The notes beneath the pieces were generated by a model that saw only the letters and a program-made list of their open reading frames with translations, did no database searches and had not been told where the DNA came from. A program made the translations under genes and the position numbers. DNA of 64,000 nucleotides from Alphaproteobacteria bacterium (GTDB taxonomy: Bacteria > Pseudomonadota > Alphaproteobacteria > UBA828): the NCBI GenBank assembly GCA_965220745.1, contig CBDCQT010000012.1:868741-932740 (forward strand), in the 5' to 3' direction. How positions within the stretch are numbered: the first letter of the stretch is position 1; each line of letters begins with the position of its first letter. Below, piece by piece: positions 26,632 to 56,038 of the stretch.

Positions 26632-26671
26632 GAACTCTCCCGACGCCGGCTGCCCCCGGTTGCCGGCGCAG

Positions 26672-29592: not shown

Positions 29593-29596
29593 GGCG

Positions 29597-30478: not shown

Positions 30479-30596
30479 GATAGCTCCGACACTATGCTGA
30501 ATCCTCGACATATGAAACAGCAAGTGCTGCAACCTACTGGACTGGCTATGTAGCCTCCGCGTCAATGGGCAAGAACGTGAGAAAGGGAGTGTATCA

Positions 30597-35404: not shown

Positions 35405-36709
35405 TCAAGCGGCGAGGAAGCGGTTCCACTCCTTGATGAAGAGGGTGATGTGGCGCGGCCAGATCATCCAGTAGGCGATGTTGGACTGGCGCCGGAGCTT
35501 GGGTCCGGTGTCGCGCCCGCGCCCCTCGTACCACTTCAGCCACGCGTCCTCGGTCATGTAGTTCCGCGCGGTGTCCGGAGTGGGCGAATAGTAGCCCTGC
35601 TCGGCATCCGCCGCGCCGCGCCAGCCTTCGAGGCACCAGTCCATGTAGGCCATGGCCACTTCGGGCTGCGGCGCCTCGCTGGAAAGGCACATGCCGTAAT
35701 ACCAGGCGCCGGTGCCCTCCCAGACGTCGACATAATGACAGGGGATGCCGCGCTTCTTCACATCCTCGATCACCGGGTTCCAGCAATCGATGCCCCAGAC
35801 CTCCTCGGAGGCAAGCAGGTTCACCGCCTCGCCGTAGTTGGTCCAGAGTGCCCGGAAGACGCCGTCCTGCTTGGCGCCGATCAGGAAGTCGATGACGTTC
35901 TTGAGCTCGTCCGGCTCGAGATCGCCATAGCCCACCGTGACCGGGTCCATCTTACGGTTCTTCACGAGGTAGCTCGCGCAGCGCGGCGGGCCGATCAGGT
36001 CCTCGTTCTGGATCGAGACCTTGCCCCGCACGTCCACGTCGCGCCACTGGCCCTCGTAGAGCACGCCCAACGTGTCCGGTATGAGCCGGTCCGCCTGGGA
36101 CTCGGCGAACTTGTGCGGGAGGATGCCGAGGGCATCCATGTTGTAGATCTGCGGCAGCATCCCGAACGAGGTGCGGCTATCGTCCCAATAGACCATCGCC
36201 ACCGGCCAACCGCTGGTGTGGTCGGCGCCGACGTGGGCCGGGTCGGTGAAGAGCGTGTCCGCGAACTCCCAGTTGGTGATCTTCTCCGCCGGGATCGGCG
36301 CGATCGTCTCCGCCTCCCGGAGCGCCGGCACGCGGAAGGCGTTGGTCTCGATCATCGAGAAGGTCTCGTAGCCGCCGGTGATCCACTTCTGGACCGAATC
36401 TGCGAGGCTCGCGACCTGGCCGGTCACCTGGAGGCCGCCACTCATTTCCTCGAACTGCTTGAAGAAGCGCTCCTGCGCCGAGACCCCGGTGCCGATGAGC
36501 TGCATCGGCTCGTCCTGGGTGATGCCGGCGACCCGGTCCGAGAAAGCGGCCTCGGCCTCGCTTGCGGCGAGGCCCGCAGCCGCAACCACGGCGGTCGCAC
36601 CCGCCGCCGCCATGAACTCGCGCCGGTCGAGCCCGGCTGCGGTACGCGAGCGTGTCTCTGCGTCGTCGCAGAACTTCTCGTGTCTCTTGTCAAGGTGTCC
36701 GCTGTCCAT
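35405..36709 (-). CDS. Tat-exported PotD/PotF-like substrate-binding protein (copy 1)
   Basis: Twin-arginine signal DRREFMAAAG...AEA; AVNLLASEEV; clear paralog of 45614..46972. Confidence 0.8.
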   Translation of the reverse strand: MDSGHLDKRHEKFCDDAETRSRTAAGLDRREFMAAAGATAVVAAAGLAASEAEAAFSDRVAGITQDEPMQLIGTGVSAQERFFKQFEEMSGGLQVTGQVASLADSVQKWITGGYETFSMIETNAFRVPALREAETIAPIPAEKITNWEFADTLFTDPAHVGADHTSGWPVAMVYWDDSRTSFGMLPQIYNMDALGILPHKFAESQADRLIPDTLGVLYEGQWRDVDVRGKVSIQNEDLIGPPRCASYLVKNRKMDPVTVGYGDLEPDELKNVIDFLIGAKQDGVFRALWTNYGEAVNLLASEEVWGIDCWNPVIEDVKKRGIPCHYVDVWEGTGAWYYGMCLSSEAPQPEVAMAYMDWCLEGWRGAADAEQGYYSPTPDTARNYMTEDAWLKWYEGRGRDTGPKLRRQSNIAYWMIWPRHITLFIKEWNRFLAA

Positions 36710-36772: not shown

Positions 36773-37531
36773 TTACTCGGCTGCGGCCCTGCCGGCCGGA
36801 GCCTCGGTGCTGAATGGATGCAGCATCCCGGTGAAGGATTTCTGCTCTGGGAACCTGTAGGTCTTGTACTTGCTGGTCTTGCGCCCGATCTCGACGATGG
36901 CCTCGGCCATCTTGGTGGCGCACACCACGCCGTCGAGCACCGGAATGCCGAGCTCGGCTTCGAGCCCGTCGGCGAACTCCGCGAAGCCGGCGCAGCCCAA
37001 GCAGATCGCCTCGGCGTCGTCCTCGTCGCGGGCGCGATAGCATTCCTGCCGGAGCTTCTCGAGCGAGCCCTCGTAGTCCCGCTCCACGTCGAGCACATAG
37101 ACCGGCGAGGTGCGCACGCTCACCCTGTGGCTCAAACCGTAGCCCGCGACCATGTCCTCGACCGGCACGCGGAAGCGCGGGATGATGGTCACGATCGCGA
37201 CCCGCGCCGCGAGCTGGCAGGCCAGGTAGAGCGAAGCTTCGGCAATCCCGATCACCGGCTTGTCGGTCATCTCGCGCGCGGCGTGCAGGCCGGGGTCGCC
37301 GTAGCAGGCGATGATGTAGGCGTCGAAGCCCTGCTGGTCGCCCTTGCGGATCTCGTTGAGGATGCCCGGCACGCACAGATATTCGTCGTAGAAGGATTCG
37401 ATCGAGGCCGGCGCGTAGTCCGGAGTCACCGCCACGACCTCGGTGCCCTCCCGCGCGACCGAGCGGCCGGCCACGGCATCGGCGTCGGTCATGTCCTGCG
37501 ACGAGTTGGGATTGATGATCATGATCTTCAT
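36773..37531 (-). CDS. Asp/Glu/hydantoin racemase family (allantoin/hydantoin racemase-like)
   Basis: INPNSS; IACYGDPG and LGCAG catalytic Cys pair; PVLDGV. Confidence 0.9.
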   Translation of the reverse strand: MKIMIINPNSSQDMTDADAVAGRSVAREGTEVVAVTPDYAPASIESFYDEYLCVPGILNEIRKGDQQGFDAYIIACYGDPGLHAAREMTDKPVIGIAEASLYLACQLAARVAIVTIIPRFRVPVEDMVAGYGLSHRVSVRTSPVYVLDVERDYEGSLEKLRQECYRARDEDDAEAICLGCAGFAEFADGLEAELGIPVLDGVVCATKMAEAIVEIGRKTSKYKTYRFPEQKSFTGMLHPFSTEAPAGRAAAE

Positions 37532-37656: not shown

Positions 37657-38793
37657 TCAGTAGCCGCACCAGCTGCGGGCGAGGATCTCGTAAACCTCCG
37701 CCGCCTGCTCGACGTGCGCGACAGGGCAGTACTCGTCCGTCTGGTGCGCCATGTGCATCTCGCCCGGCCCGAGGATTACGGTCGGCGGGCGGCCGTAGGC
37801 CGGCGTCAGCGCCGAGGCGTCGGTGAAGTAGGGCGCGCCGCGCGGCTCGATCTTCTCGCCGAGAACCCGCTCCATCACCGCGTAGATCTCCTGCATCCAC
37901 GGATGGGTGTGCGGGGTGTGCACGCCGCCGCAGTCGACGACCCGGGCGATCTTGTTTTCATCGCCCAGGTATCCTTCCAGGCCTGAGAAGATCTCCGCGT
38001 GGTTCTGGTCGGGCAGCGTCCTGATATCGATGGTGAACTCGGCGTGATCGGGCACGGAGTTGAGGTTGAGCCCGCCCTGCATGGTGCCGACGTTAAGGGT
38101 CGATCGGCCCAGCAGCTCGTGGGGCATCACGTTGAAATCGAACTCCTCCAGCTTGGTCACCGAGCGCGCCGCCTTGTAGATCGCGTTGTCGCCGTGCTCC
38201 GGCATCGAGCCGTGGGAGGTGATGCCTTCGGTCTCCACCTTCAGCCAGAGCGCGCCCTTGTGGCCGAGGATCGGATAGTTCGAGGTCGGCTCGGCGATGA
38301 CGATGGCGCCGGCCTCGCCCAGCGCGCCGATCTCGGCCAAGTGGTAGGAGCCCTCGCAGCCGGTCTCCTCGCCAGCGCAGATCGCCATCACCATGTCCGC
38401 CGACCCGCGCGTCTCCTCGGCCGCGAGCTTCAGCGCCACGTGGACGAAGGCGGAGATGCCGGCCTTCATGTCCGTGGTGCCGCGGCCAAAGAGCTTGCCG
38501 TCCACGATGTCGGCGCCGAAGGGGTCGATCGACCATTCCTTGGCACCGAGCGGCACCACGTCGATATGCCCGCCGAAGCAGAGCGGCTTCTTGCCGTTCC
38601 CGCCTTCGCCCCGCAGCACCGCGACCAGGCTCGTCCGCTCCGGCGCAAACTCGTGGTAGGAGACCTCGATCCCCGCCGCGCTCAGCAGGTCGCCCAGGTA
38701 GTGCGCGCACTCGACCTCGCGGCCCGGAGGATTGCGGGTATCCATGCGGACGATGTCCCTGGTTATCTCCAGGGCGGACGGGATGGACGACAT
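37657..38793 (-). CDS. M20-family metallo-amidohydrolase (ArgE/DapE-like)
   Basis: GHIDVVP, GRGTTDMK, GEE, IAEPT and AHQTDE. Confidence 0.9.
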   Translation of the reverse strand: MSSIPSALEITRDIVRMDTRNPPGREVECAHYLGDLLSAAGIEVSYHEFAPERTSLVAVLRGEGGNGKKPLCFGGHIDVVPLGAKEWSIDPFGADIVDGKLFGRGTTDMKAGISAFVHVALKLAAEETRGSADMVMAICAGEETGCEGSYHLAEIGALGEAGAIVIAEPTSNYPILGHKGALWLKVETEGITSHGSMPEHGDNAIYKAARSVTKLEEFDFNVMPHELLGRSTLNVGTMQGGLNLNSVPDHAEFTIDIRTLPDQNHAEIFSGLEGYLGDENKIARVVDCGGVHTPHTHPWMQEIYAVMERVLGEKIEPRGAPYFTDASALTPAYGRPPTVILGPGEMHMAHQTDEYCPVAHVEQAAEVYEILARSWCGY

Positions 38794-38997
38794 GGACTGG
38801 GCTCCTTCTCCCCGGCGGCTATATGTCGCCAGTATGGCCACGCGGAAGCAGAGGGTCCAGATCGGCCGGCGCGCTAACGGCGGTGCCTAAACCGACTGCT
38901 TGGCGACGATGAACTGGCAGGGCCCGTTTGTGCTAGTTTCCGTGCGTTTCGATGGAAGCCCAGCACGAACGCGGGCCGAGTAGGCAGGGGGCGGACC

Positions 38998-39993
38998 ATG
39001 GCGCGAATCGTACGATTCCACGAGACCGGCGGGCCCGACGTGCTGCGCCTCGACGAGGTGCCGGAGGTCGATCCCGGCCACGGCGAGGTCCGCATCAGGG
39101 TCGAGGCGATCGGCCTCAACCGGGCGGAGGTCATGCTGCGCGAGGGTATCTACCACGAGCAGCCGGTCTTCCCCTCCCGCATCGGCTACGAGGCCGCTGG
39201 CGTGGTCGAGGCCGTGGGTGAGGGGGTGACGAGCGTCAAGGAGGGCGACCGCATCGCCACGGTTCCCTCATTTGCGCTCTCCCAGACCCGCCAGGGCGTC
39301 TATGGCGAGAGCGCTACCGTGCCGGCGGAGATCGCCGAGCCTTACCCCGCGGGGCTATCGCCGGCCCAGGGCGCGACCCTCTGGATGGCCTACCTCACGG
39401 CCTATGGCGCGCTCGTGCACTATGGCGCTCTCGGCCCAGGCGACGCCGCGATCATTACCGCGGCGAGCAGCAGCGTCGGCCTCGCCGCGATCCAAATCGC
39501 GAAGGAGCGCGGCGCCACCGTGATCGCGACCACCCGGACCTCCGCCAAGAGGGATGCGCTCTTAGGCCTGGGCGCCGATCACGTCGTGGCGACCGAGGAG
39601 GAGGACCTGCCCGCGCGGGCCATGGAGATCACCGGCGACGCCGGCGCCCGTGTGATCTTCGATCCGATCGCGGGGCCGCTACTGACCACGCTCTGCGGCG
39701 CCTGCGCGCCCTACGGCACCATCTACGAATATGGCGCGCTCTATCCCGGCGAGACCGTCTATCCGCTCATGCCGATGCTGGCGAAGTCGCTCACCATCAC
39801 GGGCTACCAGGTGCTCGACTTCGTGCGCAACGAGGCGCGCTTCGCGGCCGGGCGGGACTACCTCTTCGCCGGCCTCGAAAGCGGCGCGCTGACACCCGTG
39901 ATCGACCGCGAGTTCCCGCTGGAGCAGATTATGGCTGCCCACCGCCACATGGAATCCAACACCCAATGCGGCAAGATCGTGGTGACGGTATGA
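38998..39993 (+). CDS. MDR-family (quinone oxidoreductase-like) NADPH oxidoreductase
   Basis: GGPDVL, AIGLNRAE, GYEAAG, TAASSSVGLAA and GKIVV. Confidence 0.88.
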   Translation: MARIVRFHETGGPDVLRLDEVPEVDPGHGEVRIRVEAIGLNRAEVMLREGIYHEQPVFPSRIGYEAAGVVEAVGEGVTSVKEGDRIATVPSFALSQTRQGVYGESATVPAEIAEPYPAGLSPAQGATLWMAYLTAYGALVHYGALGPGDAAIITAASSSVGLAAIQIAKERGATVIATTRTSAKRDALLGLGADHVVATEEEDLPARAMEITGDAGARVIFDPIAGPLLTTLCGACAPYGTIYEYGALYPGETVYPLMPMLAKSLTITGYQVLDFVRNEARFAAGRDYLFAGLESGALTPVIDREFPLEQIMAAHRHMESNTQCGKIVVTV

Positions 39994-40086
39994 CCGCGGG
40001 CGCATCCCGCGTTGACCGGACTTCCGTGGCGGTGAGAGACTGTGCGCGCCTGGGGGCGTCGCGAAGCCCCCGTGGAGGATGAGACG

Positions 40087-41847
40087 ATGGCAAGCAGCAC
40101 GAACGGACGCAATGGCGGTGGTTTCGAGACCGACGTGGTGACCCGCGAAATCGTGCGCGGCAAGCTGCTGGCGGTGGCGGACGAGATGGGCGTGGTGCTC
40201 GCGCGCAGCAGCATGAGCCCGGTGATCTACGAGGTGCTCGACTTCGCCTGCGGCTTCTGCGACGCGGACGGCGAGCTCGTGTCCCAAACCAACGGGATCA
40301 CCGTCTTCACCGGGACCTTCTCGATCCAGGTCAACATCATCAAGGAGAAGTTCGGCGACCGCATCCGGCCGGGCGACATCTACATGCTCAACGACCCCTA
40401 CCACGGGGGCACCCACTACAACGACGTGGGCGTGGTCAAGCCGGTCTTCGTGGACGGCGAGCTGTTCGCCTTCGCCATCTCGATCTCGCACTGGACCGAC
40501 ATCGGCGGCAAGGCGCCGGGCTCGCTGCCGGCGGATGCGACTGAGGTGTTCCAGGAGGGCATCTGCTTCCCCGGCATCCACATCTACAAGGAGGGCGAGC
40601 GCCAGGACGCCATCGTCGAGATGGTGGCGGCCAACGTGCGGCTGCCGAAGATGGCGCTGGGCGATCTCAACGCCGCGCTGGCCTCGGTCCGCATCGCCGA
40701 GAATCGCTGTCTCGAGCTTTGCGAGAAGTACGGCAAGCAGGCGGTCTCGGAGACCTTCCGCCACATCCTCGAGACCAGCGAGCGGGTGAGCCGCGAGGCC
40801 GTCGCCGCGCTGCCCGACGGCACCTATGAGGCCGAGGACTGGATCGATGGCGACGGCATCACCGAAGAGCGTTTTCGCACCAAGGTGGCGGTCACCATCG
40901 ACGGCGATGACATTACCGTCGACTACACGGGTTCCTGCGAGCAGCTCCAGGGGCCGGTCAACTGCTCGCGGTCGGCGCTGGTCTCCGCGGTGAAGACGGT
41001 CTTCAAGGCGATCGTCGATCCCCAGTCGCCCTCCAACGAGGGCTGGTTCAGGCCGCTCAAGGTGGAGGCGCCGGACGGCACGGTGTTCACCGCGACCAAG
41101 CCTGCGCCGGTCGGCTGGTACTACGAGGGCACCGGCCAGGCCTCGGAACTCGCGTGGAAGGCACTCGCCCCCATCGCGCCCAAGCGGGTCAGCATGGGCA
41201 GCGCCAACAGCCTCTGCGTGACCGTGCTGGGCGGCCACGACCGTGCCAAGGGCGAGCCTTGGGTGATGATCGAGCCGAGCATGGTCGGCTGGGGCGCCAC
41301 CGACGAGCGCGACGGCAACTGCGTGACCAGCGCCATCACCAACGGCGACACCTTCAACTATTCCATCGAGCTTCTGGAGGCGAAGTTCCCGGTGCGGGTC
41401 AACCAGTACGCGCTCAACACGCCGGGCGGCGTCGGCGCCGGCCGCCACCGGGGCGGCTACGGCTCGATCCGCGAATACGAGATTCTGACCGACGACGCGG
41501 TGCTCTCGGCAAGCTACGGTCGCTCGATCGAAAAGCCGTGGGCGCAGGAGGGCGGCGACGAGGGCTCCTGCAACTACTTCGAGCTCCACGTCGGCAACGA
41601 CGCCCGCCGGGCGGCGCGGGCGCCGACCACCATCATGAAGCGGGGCGACATCATCCGCATGTTCACCGGCGGGGGCGGCGGCTACGGCGATCCCTTCGAA
41701 CGGCCCGCCGAGGAAGTGCTTGCGGAAGTCCGCGCGGACTACATCTCCGCCAAGCGCGCCCGTGAGGACTACGGGGTCGTCCTCGCGGCGGGCGGCCGCG
41801 CGGTGGACGAGGAAGCGACCGCCAAGCTGCGCACCGCAGCCGCCTAG
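40087..41847 (+). CDS. hydantoinase B/oxoprolinase-family subunit (second)
   Basis: ARSSMSPVI, NDPYHGGTHYND, HWTDIGG and GGGGGYGDP. Confidence 0.92.
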   Translation: MASSTNGRNGGGFETDVVTREIVRGKLLAVADEMGVVLARSSMSPVIYEVLDFACGFCDADGELVSQTNGITVFTGTFSIQVNIIKEKFGDRIRPGDIYMLNDPYHGGTHYNDVGVVKPVFVDGELFAFAISISHWTDIGGKAPGSLPADATEVFQEGICFPGIHIYKEGERQDAIVEMVAANVRLPKMALGDLNAALASVRIAENRCLELCEKYGKQAVSETFRHILETSERVSREAVAALPDGTYEAEDWIDGDGITEERFRTKVAVTIDGDDITVDYTGSCEQLQGPVNCSRSALVSAVKTVFKAIVDPQSPSNEGWFRPLKVEAPDGTVFTATKPAPVGWYYEGTGQASELAWKALAPIAPKRVSMGSANSLCVTVLGGHDRAKGEPWVMIEPSMVGWGATDERDGNCVTSAITNGDTFNYSIELLEAKFPVRVNQYALNTPGGVGAGRHRGGYGSIREYEILTDDAVLSASYGRSIEKPWAQEGGDEGSCNYFELHVGNDARRAARAPTTIMKRGDIIRMFTGGGGGYGDPFERPAEEVLAEVRADYISAKRAREDYGVVLAAGGRAVDEEATAKLRTAAA

Positions 41848-41861
41848 CGCGCGGGTCGATC

Positions 41862-43907
41862 ATGGGCCGGCTCGCGTCCGACATCGGTGGCACCTTCACC
41901 GATCTGGTCTACTTCGACGATGCCCAGGGCTCGCTGCGCACCGCGAAATCCCTCACCACGCCGGGCGACCTGACCCAGGGCGTCATCGACACCGTCGAGC
42001 TCTCGGGTCTCGCACCCGGCGAGGTGGACTTCTTCGTCCACGGCGGGACCACGGTCATCAACGCGATTACCGAGCGCAAGGGCGCCCGGACCGCACTGGT
42101 CACCACCGCCGGCTTCCGCGACGTGCTGGAGATCCAGCGCGGCAACCGGCCGGACCTCTACAACCTGCGCTTCGAGAAGGAGCGCCCCTTCGTGCCCCGC
42201 CTCCTGCGCTTCGAGGTTCGCGAGCGGGTCGACGCGGCGGGCACCGTGCTCCGGCCGCTGGAGAAATCGGACCTCGACCTCGTCGTCGCGCGCTGCCGGG
42301 AGGAGGGGGTCGAGGCAATCGCGATCCAGTTCCTCCACAGCTACGTGGCGCCCCGGCACGAGGCCGAGGTGGCGGCCTATCTGCGCGAGCGCCTGCCGGA
42401 CGTGAGCATCACCGCCTCCCACGAGATCACCCGCGAGTGGCGCGAATACGAGCGCGCCAACACGGCGGTGCTCAACGCCTACGTCCAGCCCATCGTGCAG
42501 ACCTACTTCGGCCGCCTGGAGGAGGCGCTGGGCGGTGCCGACATCCGCTGCGCCTACGCCGCCATGCAGTCCAACGGCGGCACCACCAGCTTCTCCTGGG
42601 CCAAGGAGCACCCCATCACGCTGATGGAATCGGGGCCGGCGGCGGGCTGCAACGGCGCCGCCATCGTGGGTGACCTCTGCGACGAGCCCAGGGTGATCTA
42701 TCTCGATATCGGCGGCACCACCGCCAAGTGCACCACCATCGAGGACGGCGCACCGAAGGTGACCACCGAGTACCGGCTGGAGTACAGCCGCACCCAGTTC
42801 GGCTATCCGCTGCGCGTGCCCGTCGTGGACATCGTGGAGATCGGGGCCGGCGGCGGTTCCATCGCCTGGTTCGACAAGGCTGGGCTCCTGAAGGTGGGGC
42901 CGGTCTCGGCCGGCGCCGATCCGGGGCCCGCGTGCTACGGCCGGGGCGGCACCGAGCCCACCGTGACCGACGCCAAGCTCATCACCGGCGTCATCAACGC
43001 CACCAACTTCGCCGGCGGGCAGTTCGACCTCGACGAAGGCAAGGCCCGCGCCGCCATGGAGAAGATCGCGAGCGGCCTCGGCACCGACGTGGTGGAGGCG
43101 GCGGTCGCGGTGATCCGCACGGTGGAAGCCAACATGATCAACGCGCTGAAGCTGGTCTCGATCCAGCGGGGCCACGATCCGCGCGACTTCGCGCTGGTGG
43201 TGGGCGGCGGCGGCGGGCCCATGCACGGCGCGCCGCTCGGCCGCGAGCTCGGCGTGAAGGAGGTCATCGTGCCGCTCTACCCCGGCCTCTTCTCCGCCTG
43301 GGGGATGCTCGCCACCGAGCCCCGGCGCGACTTCATGCAGACCGTGCTGCGCCGCGCCGAGGAGGTGGAGGCGGGCGACGTGCGCGCGGTCTTCGCTGGT
43401 CTCAGGGAGGAGGCGGAGCGCTATTACCAGACCGACGCCCACATGGGGGAGGCGGAGATCGCCTACGAAGGCCGCATCGACCTGCGCTATCTCGGGCAGG
43501 AGCACCCGGTGACCGTGCTCGTGGACATCGAGACCGCCGAGGTCGAGGCCATTCTCGCGGCCTTCCACGACGCGCATGAGAAGACCTACACCTTCCGCCT
43601 CGACGACACCCCGGTCGAGTTCGTGACCTACCGGCTCACCGCGTCCGCCAAGGTGCCGCGGCCGGAGATGACGAGGCTGGCTGCGGACGGGCGCTCGATC
43701 GAGGCCGCGGCGCGGCCCGCGCGCACGGCCGACTTCGCGGAGGACGGGCGCCACGAGGCTGCGGTCTACGAGCGCGACCGGCTGCCTGCCGGTGCTGAAC
43801 TGACCGGGCCGCTGATTGTCGAGGAGGCCACCGCCACCACGCTCGTGCACCCCGGCCAGACGCTCCGGGTCGACGACTACGGCTTCCTGCGCATCACCGA
43901 TGCCTGA
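41862..43907 (+). CDS. hydantoinase A/oxoprolinase-family subunit (second)
   Basis: DIGGTFTD, HGGTTVIN, ESGPAAG and SAGADPGP. Confidence 0.93.
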   Translation: MGRLASDIGGTFTDLVYFDDAQGSLRTAKSLTTPGDLTQGVIDTVELSGLAPGEVDFFVHGGTTVINAITERKGARTALVTTAGFRDVLEIQRGNRPDLYNLRFEKERPFVPRLLRFEVRERVDAAGTVLRPLEKSDLDLVVARCREEGVEAIAIQFLHSYVAPRHEAEVAAYLRERLPDVSITASHEITREWREYERANTAVLNAYVQPIVQTYFGRLEEALGGADIRCAYAAMQSNGGTTSFSWAKEHPITLMESGPAAGCNGAAIVGDLCDEPRVIYLDIGGTTAKCTTIEDGAPKVTTEYRLEYSRTQFGYPLRVPVVDIVEIGAGGGSIAWFDKAGLLKVGPVSAGADPGPACYGRGGTEPTVTDAKLITGVINATNFAGGQFDLDEGKARAAMEKIASGLGTDVVEAAVAVIRTVEANMINALKLVSIQRGHDPRDFALVVGGGGGPMHGAPLGRELGVKEVIVPLYPGLFSAWGMLATEPRRDFMQTVLRRAEEVEAGDVRAVFAGLREEAERYYQTDAHMGEAEIAYEGRIDLRYLGQEHPVTVLVDIETAEVEAILAAFHDAHEKTYTFRLDDTPVEFVTYRLTASAKVPRPEMTRLAADGRSIEAAARPARTADFAEDGRHEAAVYERDRLPAGAELTGPLIVEEATATTLVHPGQTLRVDDYGFLRITDA

Positions 43908-43921
43908 GCAACTAAGTCGGC

Positions 43922-45517
43922 CTAAACTGCGTCAGGCCGGCGGGCGAGGGCGACAGCGCAGCCCGTGGACAAGAGCTGGCCGGCGGTGACGGAGGCATTG
44001 ATGAGCGCCGTCGTCGTCACGCGAGTCGCGTCGATCACGCCTGCCTCCCGGTAAGGACAGAAGGCCCCCACGCGCGCGTCGAAGCCGATGTCCGCCGGGG
44101 CCTCCTTCAGCCTTTCCAGGGCCAGCGCCGGCTCGCAGCCGGCGGCGCCCGCGATCCGGCGGAAGGGCTCCTGCAGGGCGCGGGCAAAGGCGCGGCGCTC
44201 GGGCTCGCCGGCGCCGACCGTGCCGTTCTCGATGGCGAAGGCCGCGCGCGCGAGCGCCACGCCGCCGCCCGCGACCACGCCGTCCTTCGCAGCGGCGCGC
44301 GCGGTGTTCAGTGCGTTCTCGCAGGCCTTGTAACGCGCCTTCCACGCGGTCTCGGTGACGCCGCCGACCCGGATATTGGCGACGCCCGAGACCAGCCGGG
44401 CGAGGCGGGCCTCGTACTTGCCCCGGTCGTAGCTCTTCCGTTCGTGCTCGATCGCGTCGCGAATCTGCGCGGCCCGGCGCTCCACCGCCTCCGGCGTGCC
44501 GCCGCCGCCGAAGATCGTGGTCGATACCCCGTCCACGATCGCTCGCTTGGCGGTGCCGAGCGCCGTGCTGTCGACCTTCTCCGCCGTGAGCCCGGTCTCC
44601 TCACCGACTAGGCGCCCGCCGGTGAGCACGGCGACGTCGTCGGTGGCGGCGTGGCGGTAGATACCTGACTCAGGCCCCTTAACCGCCGCGCAGTGCACCG
44701 TGCCCTCGCGGTGGTTGGTGAGCATGACGGCGAGCGCCTGGTCGGAGACGTCCTGCGCCAGCACCAGCAGGCTCCGCTTGGCCTCGCGCGCCGCCTCCAG
44801 CGCCGGCAGGAGCTGGGCCGTCTCGGTCAGCTCGCCCTGGCACATGAGCAGGAAGGGCTGGTCGAGCTTCACCTCCGTCTCGCCCGCCTTGAGCAGGAAG
44901 TTGCGCGAGAGCAGACCGTGCTCGAAGGCCATGCCGCGCATGTAGTCGACCGTCGTATCGACGCCCTGATGGTAGGAGATATTGACAACGCCTTCAGCGC
45001 CCAGCCGCTCCACCGCCTCGGCCACGAGGTCCGCGATCTCGCCGTCTCCGTCGGCGGCGACACCGGCAAGCTGCGCGAGCATCGCGCGGTCCGCGACCGG
45101 GCCGCTTTGCGGCTCGAGTGCCGCGAGCGCCTCCCGCGTGAGCGCTTCGAAGCCGCGCCGCACCGAGGGCGGGTCGATCCCCGCTGCCACCAGGCGCAAG
45201 CCCGCCTCGGCGAAGGCGCCCGCGAGCAGCGCCGTGGTGGTCGAGCCGTCGCCCACCGCATCGCGGGTCTTCTTGATGCAGGCCTTGAGCAGTTCGGTGC
45301 CGAGGGTCGCGAAGCGGTCCTCGTCTTCCAGGTCCCTGATGGCGGTGAAGCCGTCGCGGGTGAGCTCGGGAAAGTCGTCCGCGCGCTCAAGCACGACGCG
45401 GCCGCCGTGAGGCCCGAGCGTCAGCCCCGCGAGCCGCGCGGTGTGCCCAAAACCCGCCATCAACGCCTCGCGGGCGTCGGCTCCGGTCTTGATGTGCTTG
45501 GGCCGCTCGAGCGCCAT
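43922..45517 (-). CDS. divergent GroEL/Cpn60 paralog
   Basis: 531 aa; TLGPHG, TRDG, GDGSTTT, GMAF and GVVAGGG align with GroEL along its full length; no GGM tail; no adjacent groES. Confidence 0.88.
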   Translation of the reverse strand: MALERPKHIKTGADAREALMAGFGHTARLAGLTLGPHGGRVVLERADDFPELTRDGFTAIRDLEDEDRFATLGTELLKACIKKTRDAVGDGSTTTALLAGAFAEAGLRLVAAGIDPPSVRRGFEALTREALAALEPQSGPVADRAMLAQLAGVAADGDGEIADLVAEAVERLGAEGVVNISYHQGVDTTVDYMRGMAFEHGLLSRNFLLKAGETEVKLDQPFLLMCQGELTETAQLLPALEAAREAKRSLLVLAQDVSDQALAVMLTNHREGTVHCAAVKGPESGIYRHAATDDVAVLTGGRLVGEETGLTAEKVDSTALGTAKRAIVDGVSTTIFGGGGTPEAVERRAAQIRDAIEHERKSYDRGKYEARLARLVSGVANIRVGGVTETAWKARYKACENALNTARAAAKDGVVAGGGVALARAAFAIENGTVGAGEPERRAFARALQEPFRRIAGAAGCEPALALERLKEAPADIGFDARVGAFCPYREAGVIDATRVTTTALINASVTAGQLLSTGCAVALARRPDAV

Positions 45518-45613
45518 GCGACGATCTTCCGCGCTACTGAGCAGCGGTCAACGGCAGCGGCGCGGCCGAGACGTTTTCCTCGGCCGCGCCGCGCCTAGTC
45601 GAACGGGAGCGGA

Positions 45614-46972
45614 TCAGGCCGCGCTGAAGCGGTTCCACTCCTTGATGTAGCTGGTCACGTGCGTGGGCCACACCATCCAGAACGCGATGTTGGATTGCCG
45701 CCGGGTCTTAGGCCCGGTATCGCGGTCCTTGCCCATGTACCAGCGGCGGTAGTCCTCCACGGTCAGGAAGTTGAGCACCGGGTCCGGGCAGGGCGAGTAG
45801 TAGCCCTGCGGCGCCACCGCCGAGCCCCACCAGCCGTCGAGGCACCAATCCATGTAGGCCATGGCGACCTCGGGCTCCGGCGCTTCGCTGGAGAGGCACA
45901 TGGTGTGGACCCAGGCGGCCGTGCCCTCGAAGACGTCGACGTACCAGCACGGGATGCCGCGCTTCTTCACGTCCTCCACCACCGGATTCCAGCAGTCCAT
46001 GCCCCACACCTCCTCGGAGGCGAGCAGGTTCACGGCCTCGCCGTAGTTGTTCCAGATGAGGCGGAACACGCCGTCGTTCTTGGCGGCGATGAGGTAGTCC
46101 ACCACGCCTGCCACCTCGTCCGGCTCCATGTCGGAGTTGCCGACCTTGGGCGGGTCCATGATCCCGTTCTTCCAGAGGAAGCTGTAGGCGCGCGGCGGCC
46201 CCATCAGCTCGTCGTTCTGGATCGAGGTCTTGCCGACCGCATCCACGTCCCGCCACTTGCCGGTGTAGAGCAGCCCGAGCGAGTCGGGGATCGCGAAGTC
46301 CGGCTGAGTCGGCGCGAACTTGTGCGGCAGCACGCCGAGCGCGTCCATGTTGTAGAACTGGGGCACGCCGTAGAACGAATCCTTGTTCTCGTCCCAGTAG
46401 ACGATGTTGGACGGCCAGCCGGTCACCTCGTCGGCACCGATATGGCCGGGCTGGGTGTAGAGCGAATCAGCGAACTCCCAGTTGGTGATCTTCTCGGCCG
46501 GGATCGGCACGATCACCTCGGCCTCCCGCAGCGCCGGCTGACGGTAGGCGTTGGTCTCGACCATCGAGTAGGTCTTGTTGCCGCCGGTGATGAACTTGGT
46601 GATCATCTCGCTCAAGCCCGCCACCGTGCCGGTCACATCGAGGCCGGTGTCCTCCTTGAACCTGTTGAAAAAGCGCTCCTGCACCGAGACTCCGAGGCCG
46701 ATGGTCTGCATCGGGTCGTCCTGGGTGATGCCTGCCACGCGCTCCGCGAGGCCCGCCTTCGCAGTGCCCGTGCCGAGCACGGTGCCGGCCGCGGCCGCGG
46801 TCACGCCGGCTGCGGCGAGGAAGGTGCGGCGGTCGATGCCTCCGCCCTCCTGCTCCTCCGCCTCGGCATCGCGGAAGCGCTTGATCGCCTTCTCCTCCAC
46901 TGCCATCGCGGTATGGAGATCCATCCGGTCCGACAGATGCTCGTACTTCTTTTCAAGATGTTTGCTGTCCAT
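45614..46972 (-). CDS. Tat-exported PotD/PotF-like substrate-binding protein (copy 2)
   Basis: Twin-arginine signal DRRTFLAAAG...AKA; last gene of a PotABC-like set. Confidence 0.83.
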   Translation of the reverse strand: MDSKHLEKKYEHLSDRMDLHTAMAVEEKAIKRFRDAEAEEQEGGGIDRRTFLAAAGVTAAAAGTVLGTGTAKAGLAERVAGITQDDPMQTIGLGVSVQERFFNRFKEDTGLDVTGTVAGLSEMITKFITGGNKTYSMVETNAYRQPALREAEVIVPIPAEKITNWEFADSLYTQPGHIGADEVTGWPSNIVYWDENKDSFYGVPQFYNMDALGVLPHKFAPTQPDFAIPDSLGLLYTGKWRDVDAVGKTSIQNDELMGPPRAYSFLWKNGIMDPPKVGNSDMEPDEVAGVVDYLIAAKNDGVFRLIWNNYGEAVNLLASEEVWGMDCWNPVVEDVKKRGIPCWYVDVFEGTAAWVHTMCLSSEAPEPEVAMAYMDWCLDGWWGSAVAPQGYYSPCPDPVLNFLTVEDYRRWYMGKDRDTGPKTRRQSNIAFWMVWPTHVTSYIKEWNRFSAA

Positions 46973-47039: not shown

Positions 47040-47921
47040 CTAAACCTGGTGCTCCTCCTGCCCTCTGAAGCGGGGCCGGTAACGACTCGCGGTCATCAGG
47101 TACCCGAAGATGCCGATCACCGCGAACGAGATCAACGTGATGATGACGCCCACGGCGAAGATGCGCGGCGTGATGCGGATCGTGGTCGCGCCCAGCACGT
47201 CCAAGGGCAGCGTGTTCTGCGATCCGGCCACCAGCACGGTGCGGGCGAACTCGTCGAACGAGAGCGTAAAGCCGAAGAGCGCGGACGCCATGATGCCGGG
47301 CTTCATGATCGGCAGCGTGATGTGCCAGAACGTGCGCCAGCTGTTGGCGCCCAGGCACATTGCTGCCTCCTCCGTCGAGCGGTCGAAGCGGTTGAAGACC
47401 GTCAGCATCACGATGAAGCAGAACGGGAAGGTCCAGAGGATGTGGACCGGCAGCGTGGTGCCCAGCCAGTGCTTGTCGATGCCGATGCCCTGCCAGAACA
47501 GCGCGTGGCCCAGGCCCACGGTGACGCCGGGGATCATGATGCCGACCAGGTAAAGGTAGAAGATCGGCCCCGCGCCCAGGAAGCGCGCGCGCATCGCCTG
47601 CGCCGCCATGGTGGCGAGCACGGTCGAGATGCACATGACGAGGAGCGCCAACACCAGCGAGCGCAGCCCCGCATTGCCGAAGTCGCCGACGTATTCGCCG
47701 ATGTCCCGCGCCGTGCCCGAGGGGTTGAAGAGCCGCTCGTACCAGAAAATGCTCGTCCCCTGCATGGGGAAGGTGGGCCCGCCGTCCTCGCCCTGGAAGG
47801 AGAGGATCGCCATGACGATAAAGGGCCCGTAGAGCATCAGCACGAAGAGCACCACGTAGACCGCGAGGACGATCTTGACCCAGCCGAACTTGGCGACGTG
47901 ATAGCTCGTTGGCTCCGCCAC
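47040..47921 (-). CDS. ABC permease (PotC-like)
   Basis: EEAAMCLGA loop; FTLSFDEF. Confidence 0.9.
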   Translation of the reverse strand: MAEPTSYHVAKFGWVKIVLAVYVVLFVLMLYGPFIVMAILSFQGEDGGPTFPMQGTSIFWYERLFNPSGTARDIGEYVGDFGNAGLRSLVLALLVMCISTVLATMAAQAMRARFLGAGPIFYLYLVGIMIPGVTVGLGHALFWQGIGIDKHWLGTTLPVHILWTFPFCFIVMLTVFNRFDRSTEEAAMCLGANSWRTFWHITLPIMKPGIMASALFGFTLSFDEFARTVLVAGSQNTLPLDVLGATTIRITPRIFAVGVIITLISFAVIGIFGYLMTASRYRPRFRGQEEHQV

Positions 47922-47924
47922 GGC

Positions 47925-48830
47925 TCAGAGCTCCCGTCGCAGATTGACGAACTGGAAGATCAGCACGATCACCGGAATCGAGACCAGCACCATGACCACC
48001 GCCACGGCCGACGCCGCCGGCCACTGCAGCAGGCCCTGCTGCTGGATCAGCACGTTGGCCAGCATGGTGGTCTTGCCGCCGCCGATGAACTTCTGAATCG
48101 CGAACTCGCCCATCATCACGACGAAGACGAAGAGGATGCCGGTCGCCAGCCCCGGCTTGGTCAGCGGCACGATGATCCTCCAGAAGGTGGTCCAGGCCGA
48201 GGCGCCGAGGTCGCGCGCTGCCTCGATTACCTGGCGGTCGATCTTGGCCATGGAGAAGTAGATCGGCCCGATCATGAACACCGACCAGATGATCGCCATG
48301 GAGAAGACCATGCTCGGTTCGCTGTAGAGCAGGATCTCCGCCGGCTCGTCGATGATGCCGATCCCCATCAGGATCTGGTTGATCAGCCCCTTGCGTCCCA
48401 GCAGCGGCAGCCACGCCACCATGCGGATCAGCGCGCTGGTCCAGAATGGCACGATGCAGAGCAGCAGGATGTAGAGCTTGAGCCGCTCGCTCTTCACGAA
48501 GAAGCAGACGTAGTAGGCCACCGGATAGCAGAGCAGCACCATCAGCGGCAGCACGATGATGGCGATCAGGAAGGTGAAGCCCAGGGTCTGCAGGTAGGTC
48601 GCGGTGGTGAAGAATTCGATGTAGTTTTCGAGCACGAAGCCCGGCTTCATGCCGTAGGCCCAGGGCTTGTAGAAGCTGAAGACCACGACAGAGACCAGCG
48701 GGATGCCGCAGAAGAGCGCCATCACGATGGTGGGCGCCGCCACCAACAGGAGGGCTTGGCGCGCGCGCTTCTTGGTGAGCGTCATCCCGGACGAAAGGGC
48801 CGGGACCGGCGTTTGGGCTGCGTCCGTCAC
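47925..48830 (-). CDS. ABC permease (PotB-like)
   Basis: PFWTSALIR; IEAARDLGA; WPAASA. Confidence 0.9.
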   Translation of the reverse strand: MTDAAQTPVPALSSGMTLTKKRARQALLLVAAPTIVMALFCGIPLVSVVVFSFYKPWAYGMKPGFVLENYIEFFTTATYLQTLGFTFLIAIIVLPLMVLLCYPVAYYVCFFVKSERLKLYILLLCIVPFWTSALIRMVAWLPLLGRKGLINQILMGIGIIDEPAEILLYSEPSMVFSMAIIWSVFMIGPIYFSMAKIDRQVIEAARDLGASAWTTFWRIIVPLTKPGLATGILFVFVVMMGEFAIQKFIGGGKTTMLANVLIQQQGLLQWPAASAVAVVMVLVSIPVIVLIFQFVNLRREL

Positions 48831-48890: not shown

Positions 48891-49973
48891 TCACTCGAAC
48901 ACCACCAGCGCGTCGTCGGTGTTCCAGCCCACTCTCACCTTGTCGCCGTGGCCGAGCGCGGTAATCGCCGGCGGCGGCTCGTGCTCGTCGACACGGATCG
49001 AATCGCCGCTCGGCAGGTCCACGTTGAACTCGATCTGCGAGGTCTCGAAGATGGAGAACGACACCTCGCCCTCCACCGTGTTTTCGGGCGTCTCGCCGTT
49101 CAGCAGCAGGTTGGTCAGGCTCGCCCGCACCACCACGTGGCAGTCCTTGCGCGCCGGCGCGTCGTCTGCGATGCGGGCGCGGAAGGTGCCGGCCGGCCCG
49201 GTGACGGTGGCGACGCCGTTCTCCACGCCCGTGATCTCGCCCGCCAGGATGTTGTTCTTACCCACGAACTGGGCGACGAACAGGTTCTTGGGGCGGTGGG
49301 TCACCTCCTCGGGCGGGCCGATCTGTTCGATCCGGCCCAGGTTCATGATCACCACCCGGTCGGAAACCGCGAAGGCTTCGGTCTGGGTGTGGGTGACGTG
49401 CACGAAAGCGACGCCGAAGTCGGTGTTGAGGCGGCGCAGCTCGCGCTGCATCCGCAGGCGCAGGTTCGCGTCGAGCGAGCCCAGCGGCTCGTCGAGCAGG
49501 AGCACGTCCGGCCGCGTGACCAGCGCCCGCGCCAGACCGACGCGCTGCTGCTGGCCGCCCGAGAGCTGCTGGATCGCCCGGTCGGCCAGGTCCTCAATAT
49601 CCACGGCGCGCAGCATCTCCAGCGCGCGCTGGGCGCGCTCCCTTGACGAGACATTGCGCATGCGCAGGCCGAACTCGACGTTCTGCGCCACCGACATGTG
49701 CGGGAAGAGCGCGAAGTGCTGGAACACCATGGCGGTGTTGCGCTCGTGCGGCTCCAGGTGAGTGCAGTCCCGCCCGGCGATGAGGATCTGGCCGTCCGTC
49801 GGCTCCTCGAAGCCGGAGATCATGCGCAGCGTCGTGGTCTTGCCGCAGCCAGATGGGCCGATGAAGGAAATGTACTCGCCTTGCGCGATGTGGAGTGTCA
49901 TCTCGTCGACGGCAAGGATGTCCCTGCCGAAGCGCTTGGTGACATTGATCAGATCGACGGCAATGTCGCTCAT
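48891..49973 (-). CDS. ABC ATP-binding protein (PotA-like)
   Basis: GPSGCGKTT, LSGGQQQR and LLDEP; TOBE-like C-terminus. Confidence 0.93.
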   Translation of the reverse strand: MSDIAVDLINVTKRFGRDILAVDEMTLHIAQGEYISFIGPSGCGKTTTLRMISGFEEPTDGQILIAGRDCTHLEPHERNTAMVFQHFALFPHMSVAQNVEFGLRMRNVSSRERAQRALEMLRAVDIEDLADRAIQQLSGGQQQRVGLARALVTRPDVLLLDEPLGSLDANLRLRMQRELRRLNTDFGVAFVHVTHTQTEAFAVSDRVVIMNLGRIEQIGPPEEVTHRPKNLFVAQFVGKNNILAGEITGVENGVATVTGPAGTFRARIADDAPARKDCHVVVRASLTNLLLNGETPENTVEGEVSFSIFETSQIEFNVDLPSGDSIRVDEHEPPPAITALGHGDKVRVGWNTDDALVVFE

Positions 49974-50048: not shown

Positions 50049-50143
50049 TTATTATCCTCTGGCGCGAGCCAAGGTTAAGTCTAACTGTCGTCAGAGCGCG
50101 CCGTCAACTCGACGGCCCTGTGGGCGACGTGCGAGACGATTTG

Positions 50144-52234: not shown

Positions 52235-53059
52235 CTACTTCTTCAGCTTCGCGAGGATGGTCTCGACGCGCTCAAGCGCGGCGCGGGCGTTTGCCGCCTC
52301 CTCGCGGACGGTTCTGAGCGTCGCCTCGTCTTCGCTTTCGTCGCCCCTGACCGGCCTCACCTCGAGGCGCGCGTCGTGCAGGTTGTTGATCACGACCGCG
52401 ATCACGAGGTTGATCATGATGACCGCCGCCAGCATCACGAAGCTGACGAAGAAGAGCCACGCCATCGGGTGGAGCTCCATGGCGACGTACATGATGTCGG
52501 TCCAGTCCTCGAGCGTCATCACCCGGAAGAGCGAGAGCAGCGCGATGCCGAGGTTGCGCCAGTGCGTCGGGTCGTGGTCGCGGAAGAGGTGCACGCCCGC
52601 GATCGCGTAGACGTAGAAGACCGCAGACAGCAGCAGCATCACGTGTCCCAGCCCCGGCAGGGAGCGAATCAGGGTCGAGACGATGACGCGGAGCTGCGGC
52701 ACCACCGTCGCCACCCGCAGCACGCGAAGCAGCCGCGCGAGCCTCGCGATGAGGGCGAACTCGCCGGCGTCCGGCAGGAAGGCGAGGACCAGGATGGCGA
52801 AGTCGAAGAGGTTCCAGCCGTCCTTGAAATAGCGCTCGAACCGGGGCGCGACGGCGGTGAGCTTGATCGCCGCCTCGACCACGAAGACGGCGAGCGCCAC
52901 GTGGAAGGCCCACTCGATGGCGTGGCCGAAGCGTGCGTCGAACCACTGGCTCGTCTCCAGGCCGAGACCGATCGCGGTGATGAGGATCATCACGATGATC
53001 AGCACGTTGAACGCCGGCGCCGCAACGATGCGCGCGCACAACCGCTTCAGTTCGCTCAT
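52235..53059 (-). CDS. bacterial voltage-gated cation channel (BacNav/AnclNav family)
   Basis: Six TM segments; DGWNLFDF; S4 segment RLARLLRVLR; filter TLEDWTD; C-terminal coiled coil. Confidence 0.9.
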   Translation of the reverse strand: MSELKRLCARIVAAPAFNVLIIVMILITAIGLGLETSQWFDARFGHAIEWAFHVALAVFVVEAAIKLTAVAPRFERYFKDGWNLFDFAILVLAFLPDAGEFALIARLARLLRVLRVATVVPQLRVIVSTLIRSLPGLGHVMLLLSAVFYVYAIAGVHLFRDHDPTHWRNLGIALLSLFRVMTLEDWTDIMYVAMELHPMAWLFFVSFVMLAAVIMINLVIAVVINNLHDARLEVRPVRGDESEDEATLRTVREEAANARAALERVETILAKLKK

Positions 53060-54797: not shown

Positions 54798-54834
54798 GAG
54801 GGTCCTCTGATTTTGAGGGGGAGGGTCCTCTGAT
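54798..54834 (+). repeat. 14-bp direct repeat GAGGGTCCTCTGAT x2 overlapping the integrase RBS/start
   Basis: Copies at 54798-54811 and 54821-54834; degenerate third copy at 54789-54799. Confidence 0.8.
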
Positions 54835-56038
54835 GTTGACTGAGCGGGCGATCCGGGACGCGAAGCCGGGGCCGAAAGCGTGCATTCTGTGGGATGCGCG
54901 GGTCAAGGGCCTGGGCCTGAAAATCCAGCCGGGCGGCACCAAGTCATACGTTCTCGACTACCGGGTGAACGGGCGACAGCGGCGAGTCTCTCTTGGTCGC
55001 GTTGGCGAGGTTAGCCTGAAGGCGGCGCGTGAGCGGGCCGGCCGCGAGTTAACCGCAATCCGCAACGGCGAATCGGACCCGCTACGGCGCCGCGAGGATG
55101 CCGCCGCAGCGCCAACCGTCGCCGACGGGGTAGCGCGGTTCTTTCGGGAGTATGTGCCGGGCCGGATCGAGCGGGGCCGGATGGCGGAGCGCACGGCGGC
55201 TGACTATAGCCAACAGTGCGACCGCTACATCGTGCCGGCCTTGGGCGCGCTCAAGGTCGCCGAGGTCTCTCGCGCCGATGTCGAGCGCATGTTGAAGCCG
55301 TTGAAGCCCGTTCAACGTAACCGCGTCGCGTCGCTCGCAAGCCGGTTGTTCAACCTGTTCGAGACATGGGAAATCCGGCCGCAGCACACTAACCCGGTCC
55401 GAGGCATCGAACGCGCGCGCGAGCAACCGCGCGACCGGGTGCTTGCCGCGTCCGAGCTTTCCGCCCTGGGCGCTGTGCTCGCCAGAATGGACGATGCCAG
55501 CCCCTACGCGGTGGGCGCGATCCGCATGGCTGCGCTGACCGGGTGGCGCATCGGGGAGGTCGTGGCGCTCAAGTGGGGAGACGTGAATTTTGAGACCGGC
55601 TTGGCGACATTGCCGAGTACAAAGACCGGCCGGCAGACGCGGGCGCTCGGAAGTGCTGCGCTGGAACTGGTGGCGTCCATGCCCCGTGTGAACGACAACC
55701 CCCACGTCTTCGCGGGCGGGCAGCCCGGTAGCGCCATCGGCTACAAGGCAGTCCGCTCCACCTTCGCGCGTGCGGTCGAGAGTGCCGGCCTGTCCGATAT
55801 CAGGCTGCACGACTTGCGGAGAACCATCGCGACAAATGCCGCAGCCGCAGGCGTTGGGGTCCACACGCTTCGCGACCTGTTGGGGCATTCGACGTTGGCG
55901 ATGTCTAACCGCTACGTCCGCCGGACCGGTGGCGCCTTGGTCGAGGCGGTCGAACAATCCAGCGCCGCGATGGCGGCGATGATGGGCGACGGCAAGGACG
56001 CGGACATCGTGCCGCTGCGGAAGCACGATGCCGGGTGA
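54833..56038 (+). CDS. tyrosine integrase with arm-DNA-binding domain
   Basis: N-terminal LWD..VKGLGLKI...GTKS; catalytic R (TGWRIGE), K (TKTG), HxxR (HDLRR), LGH and Y (NRY) all present. Confidence 0.95.
   Translation: MLTERAIRDAKPGPKACILWDARVKGLGLKIQPGGTKSYVLDYRVNGRQRRVSLGRVGEVSLKAARERAGRELTAIRNGESDPLRRREDAAAAPTVADGVARFFREYVPGRIERGRMAERTAADYSQQCDRYIVPALGALKVAEVSRADVERMLKPLKPVQRNRVASLASRLFNLFETWEIRPQHTNPVRGIERAREQPRDRVLAASELSALGAVLARMDDASPYAVGAIRMAALTGWRIGEVVALKWGDVNFETGLATLPSTKTGRQTRALGSAALELVASMPRVNDNPHVFAGGQPGSAIGYKAVRSTFARAVESAGLSDIRLHDLRRTIATNAAAAGVGVHTLRDLLGHSTLAMSNRYVRRTGGALVEAVEQSSAAMAAMMGDGKDADIVPLRKHDAG

Follow-up and report, generated by a model that had tools for sequence, protein, structure and literature searches.

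The DNA analysed here, called the window below, is a stretch of 64,000 nucleotides from an alphaproteobacterium of the GTDB lineage UBA828 (assembly GCA_965220745.1, contig CBDCQT010000012.1, positions 868,741 to 932,740 of the forward strand). On its minus strand, at 43922-45517, it encodes a GroEL-like paralog, named GroELx in this work, which follows the gene of a PotD/PotF-like substrate-binding protein (SBP) in an ATP-binding cassette (ABC) importer operon. We propose, with a probability of about 0.5, that GroELx is a client-dedicated chaperonin which binds ATP, is a poor ATP hydrolase, and folds or holds the SBP ahead of its export through twin-arginine translocation (Tat); the paralogous binding protein SBP2, encoded in the same window, is probably a client as well. 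The pairing itself is well supported: GroELx and SBP form a conserved two-gene module. The features on which the proposal is based are the following.

43922..45517, minus strand: GroELx, divergent Cpn60 paralog without GroES, 531 aa (open reading frame; Pfam and NCBIfam; AlphaFold2 (AF2) model and Foldseek)
44315..44317, minus strand: N401 codon, in place of E. coli D398 (GroL alignment; N in 25/25 aligned members)
44654..44680, minus strand: family motif KGPESGIYR, residues 280-288, replacing KAPGFGDRR (K, G, P, S, G, Y and R in 25/25 members)
45553..45595, minus strand: GC-rich hairpin without U tract, in the 96-nt SBP-GroELx spacer after the SBP stop (folding)
45614..46972, minus strand: PotD/PotF-like SBP, the proposed client (Pfam SBP_bac_8; AF2 model and Foldseek; leader alignment)
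46781..46837, minus strand: twin-arginine signal core, SBP residues 46-64, GIDRRTFLAAAG... (Pfam TAT_signal, 22.1 bits against a cut-off of 22.7, E 1.3e-4)
46838-46972, minus strand: conserved leader extension MDSKHLE..., SBP residues 1-45 (leader alignment; helix predicted with low confidence)
47040..47921, minus strand: ABC permease, PotC-like (Pfam, NCBIfam)
47925..48830, minus strand: ABC permease, PotB-like (Pfam, NCBIfam)
48891..49973, minus strand: ABC ATPase, PotA-like, with TOBE domain, first gene of the importer operon (Pfam, NCBIfam)
50051..50107, minus strand: upstream of the ATPase gene, two sigma-70-like promoter matches that overlap (consensus match only; 2 found against 0.3 expected)

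The GroELx reading frame begins with ATG and encodes 531 residues with no internal stop. Its product is a member of the group I chaperonin superfamily that fails several tests of a canonical GroEL. It matches Cpn60_TCP1 (PF00118) with 161.8 bits against a Pfam cut-off of 34.3 and passes the subfamily model PRK12849 (NF009487; 453.8 bits against 352), and with 433 bits it stays under the cut-off of 582.1 of the NCBIfam GroEL equivalog TIGR02348. A genome-wide scan with the latter model gave 432.6 bits for GroELx, against 843 and 745 for the two groES-linked copies. The AF2 model (pLDDT 86.4) has the three-domain Cpn60 fold with equatorial, intermediate and apical parts, and its best Foldseek matches are all GroEL/Hsp60 (TM up to 0.84). 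Residues are numbered below after E. coli GroL, translated from NC_000913.3, to which GroELx is 36.7% identical.

In this alignment D398, the catalytic aspartate of GroEL, corresponds to N401 of GroELx (context CENALNTARAA). The preliminary description of this DNA had listed this change together with R197H, Y199L, Y203N, R501T, GDGSTT in place of GDGTTT and KGPESGIYR in place of KAPGFGDRR, and every one of them is present. It had likewise described D52 and D87 as kept, which they are (as D55 and D90), in a nucleotide site that also retains T30, G88, D495 and, in most members, G415. Further replacements not on that list are F281S, V264T, K327G, E257Q, R268E, F44D and S151A, and D283, R284, D359 and E363 are replaced as well. 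Among the inter-ring residues, R452 and E461 are kept and S463 and V464 are changed. The C-terminus (...ALARRPDAV) is devoid of GGM repeats, as had been stated, and the E. coli tail reads ...GGMGGMGGMGGMM. The claims that the gene is intact and full length and that groES is missing also held: no groES lies near GroELx, and the whole genome, which carries four GroEL-like genes, has only two Cpn10 matches (contigs C10 and C13), both adjoining canonical groEL copies.

GroELx belongs to a small, rare and distinct Cpn60 family. Among 5.8 billion clustered proteins about 39 clusters match it at 53-94% identity; below them comes a gap, one cluster at 44%, and, from 41% downwards, ordinary GroELs. When 1.84 billion representatives were searched with a profile, only P0030, P0028 (partial) and P0123 came above the canonical level. 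In a FastTree phylogeny of 68 Cpn60 rows, a single clan on a stem of 0.61 unites the 18 family members, with a support of 100 that is SH-like only, and long-branch attraction may play a part; the three other GroELs of the genome fall outside this clan. Five long proteins, P0121, P0122, P0124, P0126 and P0127 (831-1081 aa), were considered as SBP fusions or family members and rejected, since they have a tandem Cpn60-Cpn60 build whose single domains score at the canonical level; P0121 (1078 aa) and P0124 (1081 aa) are tandem Cpn60-Cpn60 proteins, and P0122, P0126 and P0127 are partial duplications, builds that may come from true fusion or from read-through in gene calling.

Both N401 and the core K-G-P-x-S-G-x-Y-R are invariant in the 25 aligned members (44-94% identity). 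Of the 271 scored Cpn60 domains, 208 carry D at position 398, 48 N, 5 S, 3 A and 2 G; 2 have a gap there, and E, C and H occur once each. Where this stretch is aligned, all domains that score more than 510 bits with the family profile have N or S, and rows below 510 bits mostly have D (best 110 of the 271 rows). Every family member scored has N or S at this position and retains KGPxSGxYR. Serine marks a deeper subclade, called S-type here (L024, P0123, P0057 and P0078, together with L035, whose sequence ends before position 398), in which D52 is replaced by S or H and the GDGTTT loop is degraded to GDGTAM or GDGSGT. In P0040, L022 and P0035, D52 is replaced by N.

Selection was estimated as pairwise Nei-Gojobori dN/dS for 12 pairs. 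GroELx gave 0.07-0.38, SBP 0.01-0.17, the ATPase 0.00-0.17, the PotC-like permease 0.03-0.30 and HyuA (introduced below) 0.04-0.16; GroELx is thus above its neighbours (0.00-0.30), yet far from 1. The frame is open and of full length in all 19 genome matches that are not cut by a contig end. The proposal of the preliminary description, a specialised chaperonin, is thereby borne out as far as a selected paralog with N or S fixed at D398 is concerned, and the decaying duplicate that a dN/dS near 1 was to indicate was not seen.

The neighbourhood of the gene argues for a specific partner. In 18 family loci, drawn from collections of genomes and metagenomes, tblastn was used to locate the neighbour proteins of the window; the metagenome loci L025-L034 and L036 proved to be canonical GroELs (D398, KAPGFGDRR) and were left out of all context counts. 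The SBP gene lies 60-100 bp upstream of GroELx on the same strand in 11 of the 14 loci with at least 1.5 kb of upstream DNA. With the window, where the reported distance of 96 bp on the same strand was exact, this makes 12 of 15 loci, down to 43% identity. L024 (43% identity) and L035 (47%) are among the linked loci and extend the linkage to the S-type subclade, whose member P0123 has no context. A PotA-like ATPase gene and two permease genes precede the pair in nine of the 11 linked loci, eight of them close (L007, L008, L009, L012, L014, L015, L016 and L018) and one distant (L024, with the order ATPase-permease-permease-SBP-GroELx-HyuB-HyuA-M20 on one strand); L035 is too short to show these genes. 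L019, a second copy in genome G012 with 57% identity, consists of an SBP-GroELx pair with no permease genes beside it. This divergent pair of G012 is 1.5 Mb away from L020, where the SBP gene (G012:C6:836444-837010) is reduced to two fragments covering residues 44-151 and 312-394. Three distant SBP/GroELx cluster pairs (P0272/P0039, P0281/P0078 and P0283/P0057) come from the same source and match in longest-contig size, and would thus lie on the same contig; the SBP link of P0057 and P0078 is read solely from this match.

The two genes also occur together. Among 44 genomes of the GTDB family, 18 have both SBP and GroELx, 25 have neither and one has GroELx only. GroELx is found in 19 of these genomes, namely that of the window, 17 of the 20 others of its genus and the sole genome of a second genus, and the SBP family (at least 63% identity) in 18 of the same 19 and in no other. 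The mismatch is G010, a genome in 640 contigs with a completeness of 62%. G019 (96% complete) and G020 (92%) are without both genes, and both are absent from all 16 genomes outside the GTDB family that were searched with the two queries. The SBP family matches GroELx in rarity: 35 of its clusters reach E of 1e-10 or less among the 5.8 billion sequences.

The SBP is a Trp-, Tyr- and Cys-rich protein of about 45 kDa. Foldseek matches its AF2 model to PotD/PotF with a target-normalised TM score of up to 0.81, and a sequence search of the PDB returned a single weak match, YdcS (E 2.3e-4). TatC is encoded in the genome. All full-length SBPs at least 53% identical to that of the window begin with MD[SDN]x-H and have a conserved extension of about 25-45 residues ahead of the twin-arginine motif; SBP2 carries the same leader type, and relatives at 43% identity or less have no extension and possess short ordinary Tat leaders. 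Neither a sigma-70 promoter nor an intrinsic terminator was detected by consensus inside the importer operon. Folding of the 96-nt spacer (-55.8 kcal/mol, z -3.78) yields a hairpin that has no Rfam match and recurs in the same place, with another sequence, in L007, L012, L014, L018, L019, L024 and L035. This hairpin may act as a stabiliser or attenuator that yields more SBP than GroELx. As to RNA, assembled contigs 90-99% alike from four metatranscriptome runs (three studies) cover the SBP gene, pieces of GroELx (e.g. 44667-45270) occur in one of them, X16, and no contig of the four runs spans the spacer. These contigs show neither co-transcription nor its absence, because they cannot rank genes and DNA carry-over is possible.

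A direct contact between the two proteins is predicted. One full-length GroELx subunit was modelled with the folded SBP precursor, and our own alignments (A1 and A3) were supplied. Three runs gave ipSAE values of 0.61, 0.59 and 0.61, against 0.00 for the best of three controls, with a partner pLDDT of 80-81 and contacts that agree over the three runs. In calibration 116 of 157 solved complexes and 2 of 215 mismatched pairs came up to this mark, counts that are only rough here because the alignments were our own. We know of no solved complex between a chaperonin and a PotD-like protein, so it seems unlikely that the pair passed because the predictor had learnt a similar structure. On the GroELx side the interface comprises residues 284-287 (S-G-I-Y of the family motif), 361-363 and 366, and on the SBP side residues 267, 270-273, 289, 292-293, 296-297 and 299-300, with the helix 289-300. 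The GroELx face is the family-specific motif, and corresponds to F281, G282, D283, R284, S358, D359, Y360 and E363 of E. coli. Family members have S, G, I/T/L/M/F and Y at the first four positions, K/R (A or G in two S-type members) and S/T/H at S358 and D359, and Y and G (D or W in a few) at Y360 and E363. We take these positions to line the wall of the GroES-capped cavity, with D359 and E363 in a negative patch. SBP residues 296 and 297 are G/A and A in 16 of 16 SBPs of the linked type, and E/Q/K and K/R in five short-leader relatives (43% identity or less). As a model, the prediction supports binding of the mature region of SBP by GroELx.

These observations can be arranged into a working scheme. 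GroELx would be made from the importer operon, 3' of a hairpin through which its dose may be kept below that of SBP. The SBP precursor would be bound in the cytoplasm through the remodelled inner face of the apical domain, where F281, D283 and R284 have become S, I/T/L and Y and where D359 and E363 are neutralised. Nucleotide binding would be kept through T30, D87, the GDG loop and D495. With the catalytic D398 lost (N or S everywhere), and in some lineages D52 too, a long-lived state of holding or folding would be driven by the binding of ATP and not by its rapid turnover, and from this state the folded SBP would be handed over, as the Tat pathway requires. Since Tat exports only folded proteins, a private cytoplasmic factor for folding or holding the SBP is a coherent role.

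The enzymatic part of the scheme leans on analogy with E. coli GroEL D398A, which, in the portion of the study concerned with this mutant, binds ATP normally, retains a steady-state ATPase activity at 3% of the wild-type level and still encapsulates and folds its substrate (PMC3326522). From this phenotype we infer a slow-ATPase or holdase behaviour: GroELx would bind nucleotide and turn it over very slowly, and its S-type relatives would not turn it over at all. Assembly of GroELx into rings, its connection with Tat export and a possible reliance on GroES are likewise only inferred. A more elaborate version, which we regard as tentative, is that rings with a rebuilt cavity wall (KGPxSGxYR and KSY..G) capture the SBP, that nucleotide binding without hydrolysis serves as the release switch, and that the protein is delivered to, or proofread for, the Tat translocon.

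Several observations weigh against SBP as the dedicated client, and some of them concern a hydantoinase-like (hyu-like) cluster that faces GroELx in the window.

35405-36709, minus strand: SBP2, paralogous SBP (same leader type as SBP)
36773-37531, minus strand: Asp/Glu/hydantoin racemase (Pfam)
37657-38841, minus strand: M20 amidohydrolase (Pfam)
38998-39993, plus strand: zinc-dependent alcohol dehydrogenase (Pfam)
40042..43907, plus strand: ATP-dependent hydantoinase/lactamase pair of HyuB (40042-41847) and HyuA (41862-43907), in convergent orientation to GroELx (Pfam)

The caprolactamase-like NCBIfam matches of HyuA and HyuB fall under their cut-offs, and the two subunits measure 74 and 65 kDa. 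A HyuA gene is found within 6 kb of GroELx in eight loci (L007, L008, L012, L014, L017, L020, L022 and L024), and in L024 the GroELx frame overlaps the start of HyuB. Three of the 15 loci, moreover, have no intact SBP gene directly upstream: in L022 a PotC-like permease gene lies 68 bp upstream, in L023 the gene directly upstream is HyuA, in the order HyuB-HyuA-GroELx, and in L020 the SBP gene is broken while GroELx is intact with a dN/dS of 0.28. The co-occurrence is one of close kin: the 44 genomes are related and therefore stand for few independent events, perhaps two or three, and not for 44. The SBP model is of moderate quality (pLDDT 69.1), and the complex was modelled with a single subunit and native SBP, so its bearing on access to a ring and on folding is limited; the conserved leader extension, finally, lies outside the confident interface. 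The convergent gap between GroELx and HyuA varies, from 14 bp in the window (43908-43921) through about 1.1-1.2 kb in L007 and L012 to 5.7 kb in L008, which suggests an insertion site.

We rank the alternatives in the order of a chaperonin for HyuA/HyuB, an escort or regulator of SBP that does not fold it, a general-purpose paralog and a relic. HyuA and HyuB are a serious alternative client and a possible co-client. If GroELx served this pair or the whole hyu-like pathway, its link with SBP would merely reflect their common catabolic island, a reading that we consider possible and clearly less probable than the one proposed. It would account for the window, L014, L017, L020 and L022, where HyuA is convergent with GroELx and 14-35 bp separate it from the GroELx stop, for the co-directional GroELx-HyuB-HyuA-M20 genes of L024 with their overlapping frames, for the gene order of L023, and for L020 and L022, which have HyuAB and no intact adjacent SBP; the MmoG-type chaperonins of large multi-subunit enzymes offer a precedent. 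It is at odds with L015, L016, L018 and L019, in which no HyuA lies within 10 kb of GroELx, and in the complete genomes of the first three the HyuA ortholog (84-86% identity) is about 0.4 to 2.5 Mb away from ABC-SBP-GroELx. In G016 and G017, where positions were compared, the distant ortholog sits beside the SBP2 block. HyuA is also expanded, with 18-36 matches per genome at E of 1e-50 or less in the five genomes searched (G016, G017, G019, G020 and G041) and two copies in the window (24589-26679 and 41862-43907), and for this reason a nearby HyuA is less informative. G019 and G020, without GroELx and SBP, yet keep many HyuA paralogs. The hydantoinases thus stay on the client list of the preliminary description as a rival, the Tat binding protein gains from synteny, co-occurrence and complex prediction, and the molybdenum (Mo) enzymes find no support, being about 15 kb away and absent from the conserved neighbourhood.

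GroELx could instead be an ATP-independent and stable partner of the SBP precursor, active in escort, retention, proofreading or control of export level and no folding machine, which we judge a little less likely than a role for HyuA/HyuB. Such a partner would fit the repeated catalytic losses described above (D398 in all members; D52 in L022, P0035, P0040 and the S-type clade, there along with the GDG loop) and a predicted contact with a folded SBP helix and not with an unfolded chain. The extension of about 25-45 residues before the twin-arginine motif recalls, too, the leaders bound by dedicated Tat chaperones as the background part of PMC3316669 presents them. The conservation of D87, T30, the GDG loop and D495 nevertheless suggests that nucleotide binding still matters, the SBP leader takes no confident part in the interface, and the intergenic hairpin would fit a sub-stoichiometric factor better than a 1:1 partner. 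That GroELx is a chaperonin for general or stress duties, devoid of a particular client and placed in the operon by historical accident, seems improbable. Many bacteria have several GroELs, this genome has four, and another copy without GroES, on contig C5, likewise ends an unrelated operon; but the adjacency to SBP is held to 43% identity despite rearrangement of all else, co-presence or co-absence of the two genes is strict in 43 of 44 genomes, and the substrate-binding and cavity residues are remodelled. Decay of a redundant duplicate, to which the loss of D398 and the faster change of GroELx (69-71% identity where SBP has 88-90%) might point, is very improbable and already contradicted by the dN/dS values of 0.07-0.38, the full-length frames and the invariant motifs. 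A chaperonin dedicated to the SBP stays our preferred reading.

Some further genes of the window and the genome deserve mention.

26672-29446, minus strand: Mo enzyme, large subunit
29597-30709, minus strand: Mo enzyme, FAD subunit
52235-53059, minus strand: Ion_trans channel gene of the voltage-gated cation channel type, a few kb past the importer operon (Pfam)
54833-56038, plus strand: phage-type integrase with Arm DNA-binding domain, a few kb past the importer operon (Pfam)

The Mo enzyme (26672-30709) is of the xanthine-dehydrogenase/CO-dehydrogenase type and lies beside the second HyuA gene. The GroEL paralog of contig C5, the third one without GroES in our description of this genome's copies (G000, C5:177211-178785; locus L021:9143-10813, minus strand), reaches 568 bits, a little below the equivalog cut-off. 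It has D398 and KAPGFGRWR and ends a co-directional string of TauD dioxygenase and class IV aminotransferase genes, and may be a second operon-embedded chaperonin; a copy with a similar score (560 bits) is present in G078.

Monooxygenase operons are the main known source of client-specific GroEL paralogs, the mechanism of which is not settled. With MmoG, MimG and PrmG, GroELx shares the idea of a GroEL homolog without GroES encoded within the operon of its presumed client; unlike in those cases its neighbourhood has no monooxygenase and its partner is an exported binding protein. The preliminary description had stated that no di-iron monooxygenase is here. This is correct for the window, whereas the same contig (C12) has four PF02332 (di-iron hydroxylase) matches, at 383104, 385345, 622107 and 854051, the nearest about 58 kb from GroELx and about 14.7 kb before the window start. 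No GroEL lies beside any of these four, the conserved GroELx neighbourhood contains no PF02332 gene, and no GroEL adjoins PF02332 in five genomes checked among the 17 of 301 in the class that have such matches. According to the passages of PMC9324122 that treat MmoG, its function is still unproven and soluble methane monooxygenase operons are without a standard GroES. In agreement with the preliminary description, the openly readable literature yielded no GroEL paralog linked to an ABC binding protein or a hydantoinase cluster, nor did the portions of the review PMC5904260 reached by a term search.

Other divergent GroELs are likewise extra copies without their own GroES, such as GroEL2 and GroEL3 of Chlamydia and Cpn60.1 of mycobacteria. 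GroELx is no member of these groups, the NCBIfam variant-chaperonin models matching it weakly (123-134 bits against cut-offs of 600). To our knowledge no conserved linkage to a client gene is described for them.

GroELx may offer a cleaner case: its candidate client is single and small (about 45 kDa), D398A has a fixed natural equivalent in it, its relatives form a graded series in the loss of more ATPase residues, and a specific contact is predicted at the cavity wall. It raises the questions of whether a chaperonin can work by ATP binding alone, how a cavity is tuned to one client, and why a binding protein without cofactor uses Tat with a long conserved leader, and it may be relevant for heterologous expression of the linked transporter. 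If the more elaborate version of the scheme is true, GroELx would be without precedent in two respects, as a Tat-specific chaperone whose substrate has no cofactor and as a natural GroEL that is deficient in hydrolysis and has a defined client. Its proposed role resembles that of the redox enzyme maturation proteins TorD, DmsD and NapD, which the background section of PMC3316669 presents as cytoplasmic binders encoded beside one Tat substrate. These are not homologous to GroELx, which matches Cpn60 models only; they serve redox enzymes with cofactors and bind the signal peptide, whereas the predicted contact of GroELx is in the mature SBP. With E. coli GroEL it has in common the fold, D52, D87 and the GDG loop, and its natural N at 398 mimics the laboratory mutant D398A. 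Unlike E. coli GroEL, it is devoid of a groES partner gene and of the GGM tail, replaces Y199, Y203, V264, F281, D283, R284, D359, E363, R501, K327 and F44, and is located inside an importer operon.

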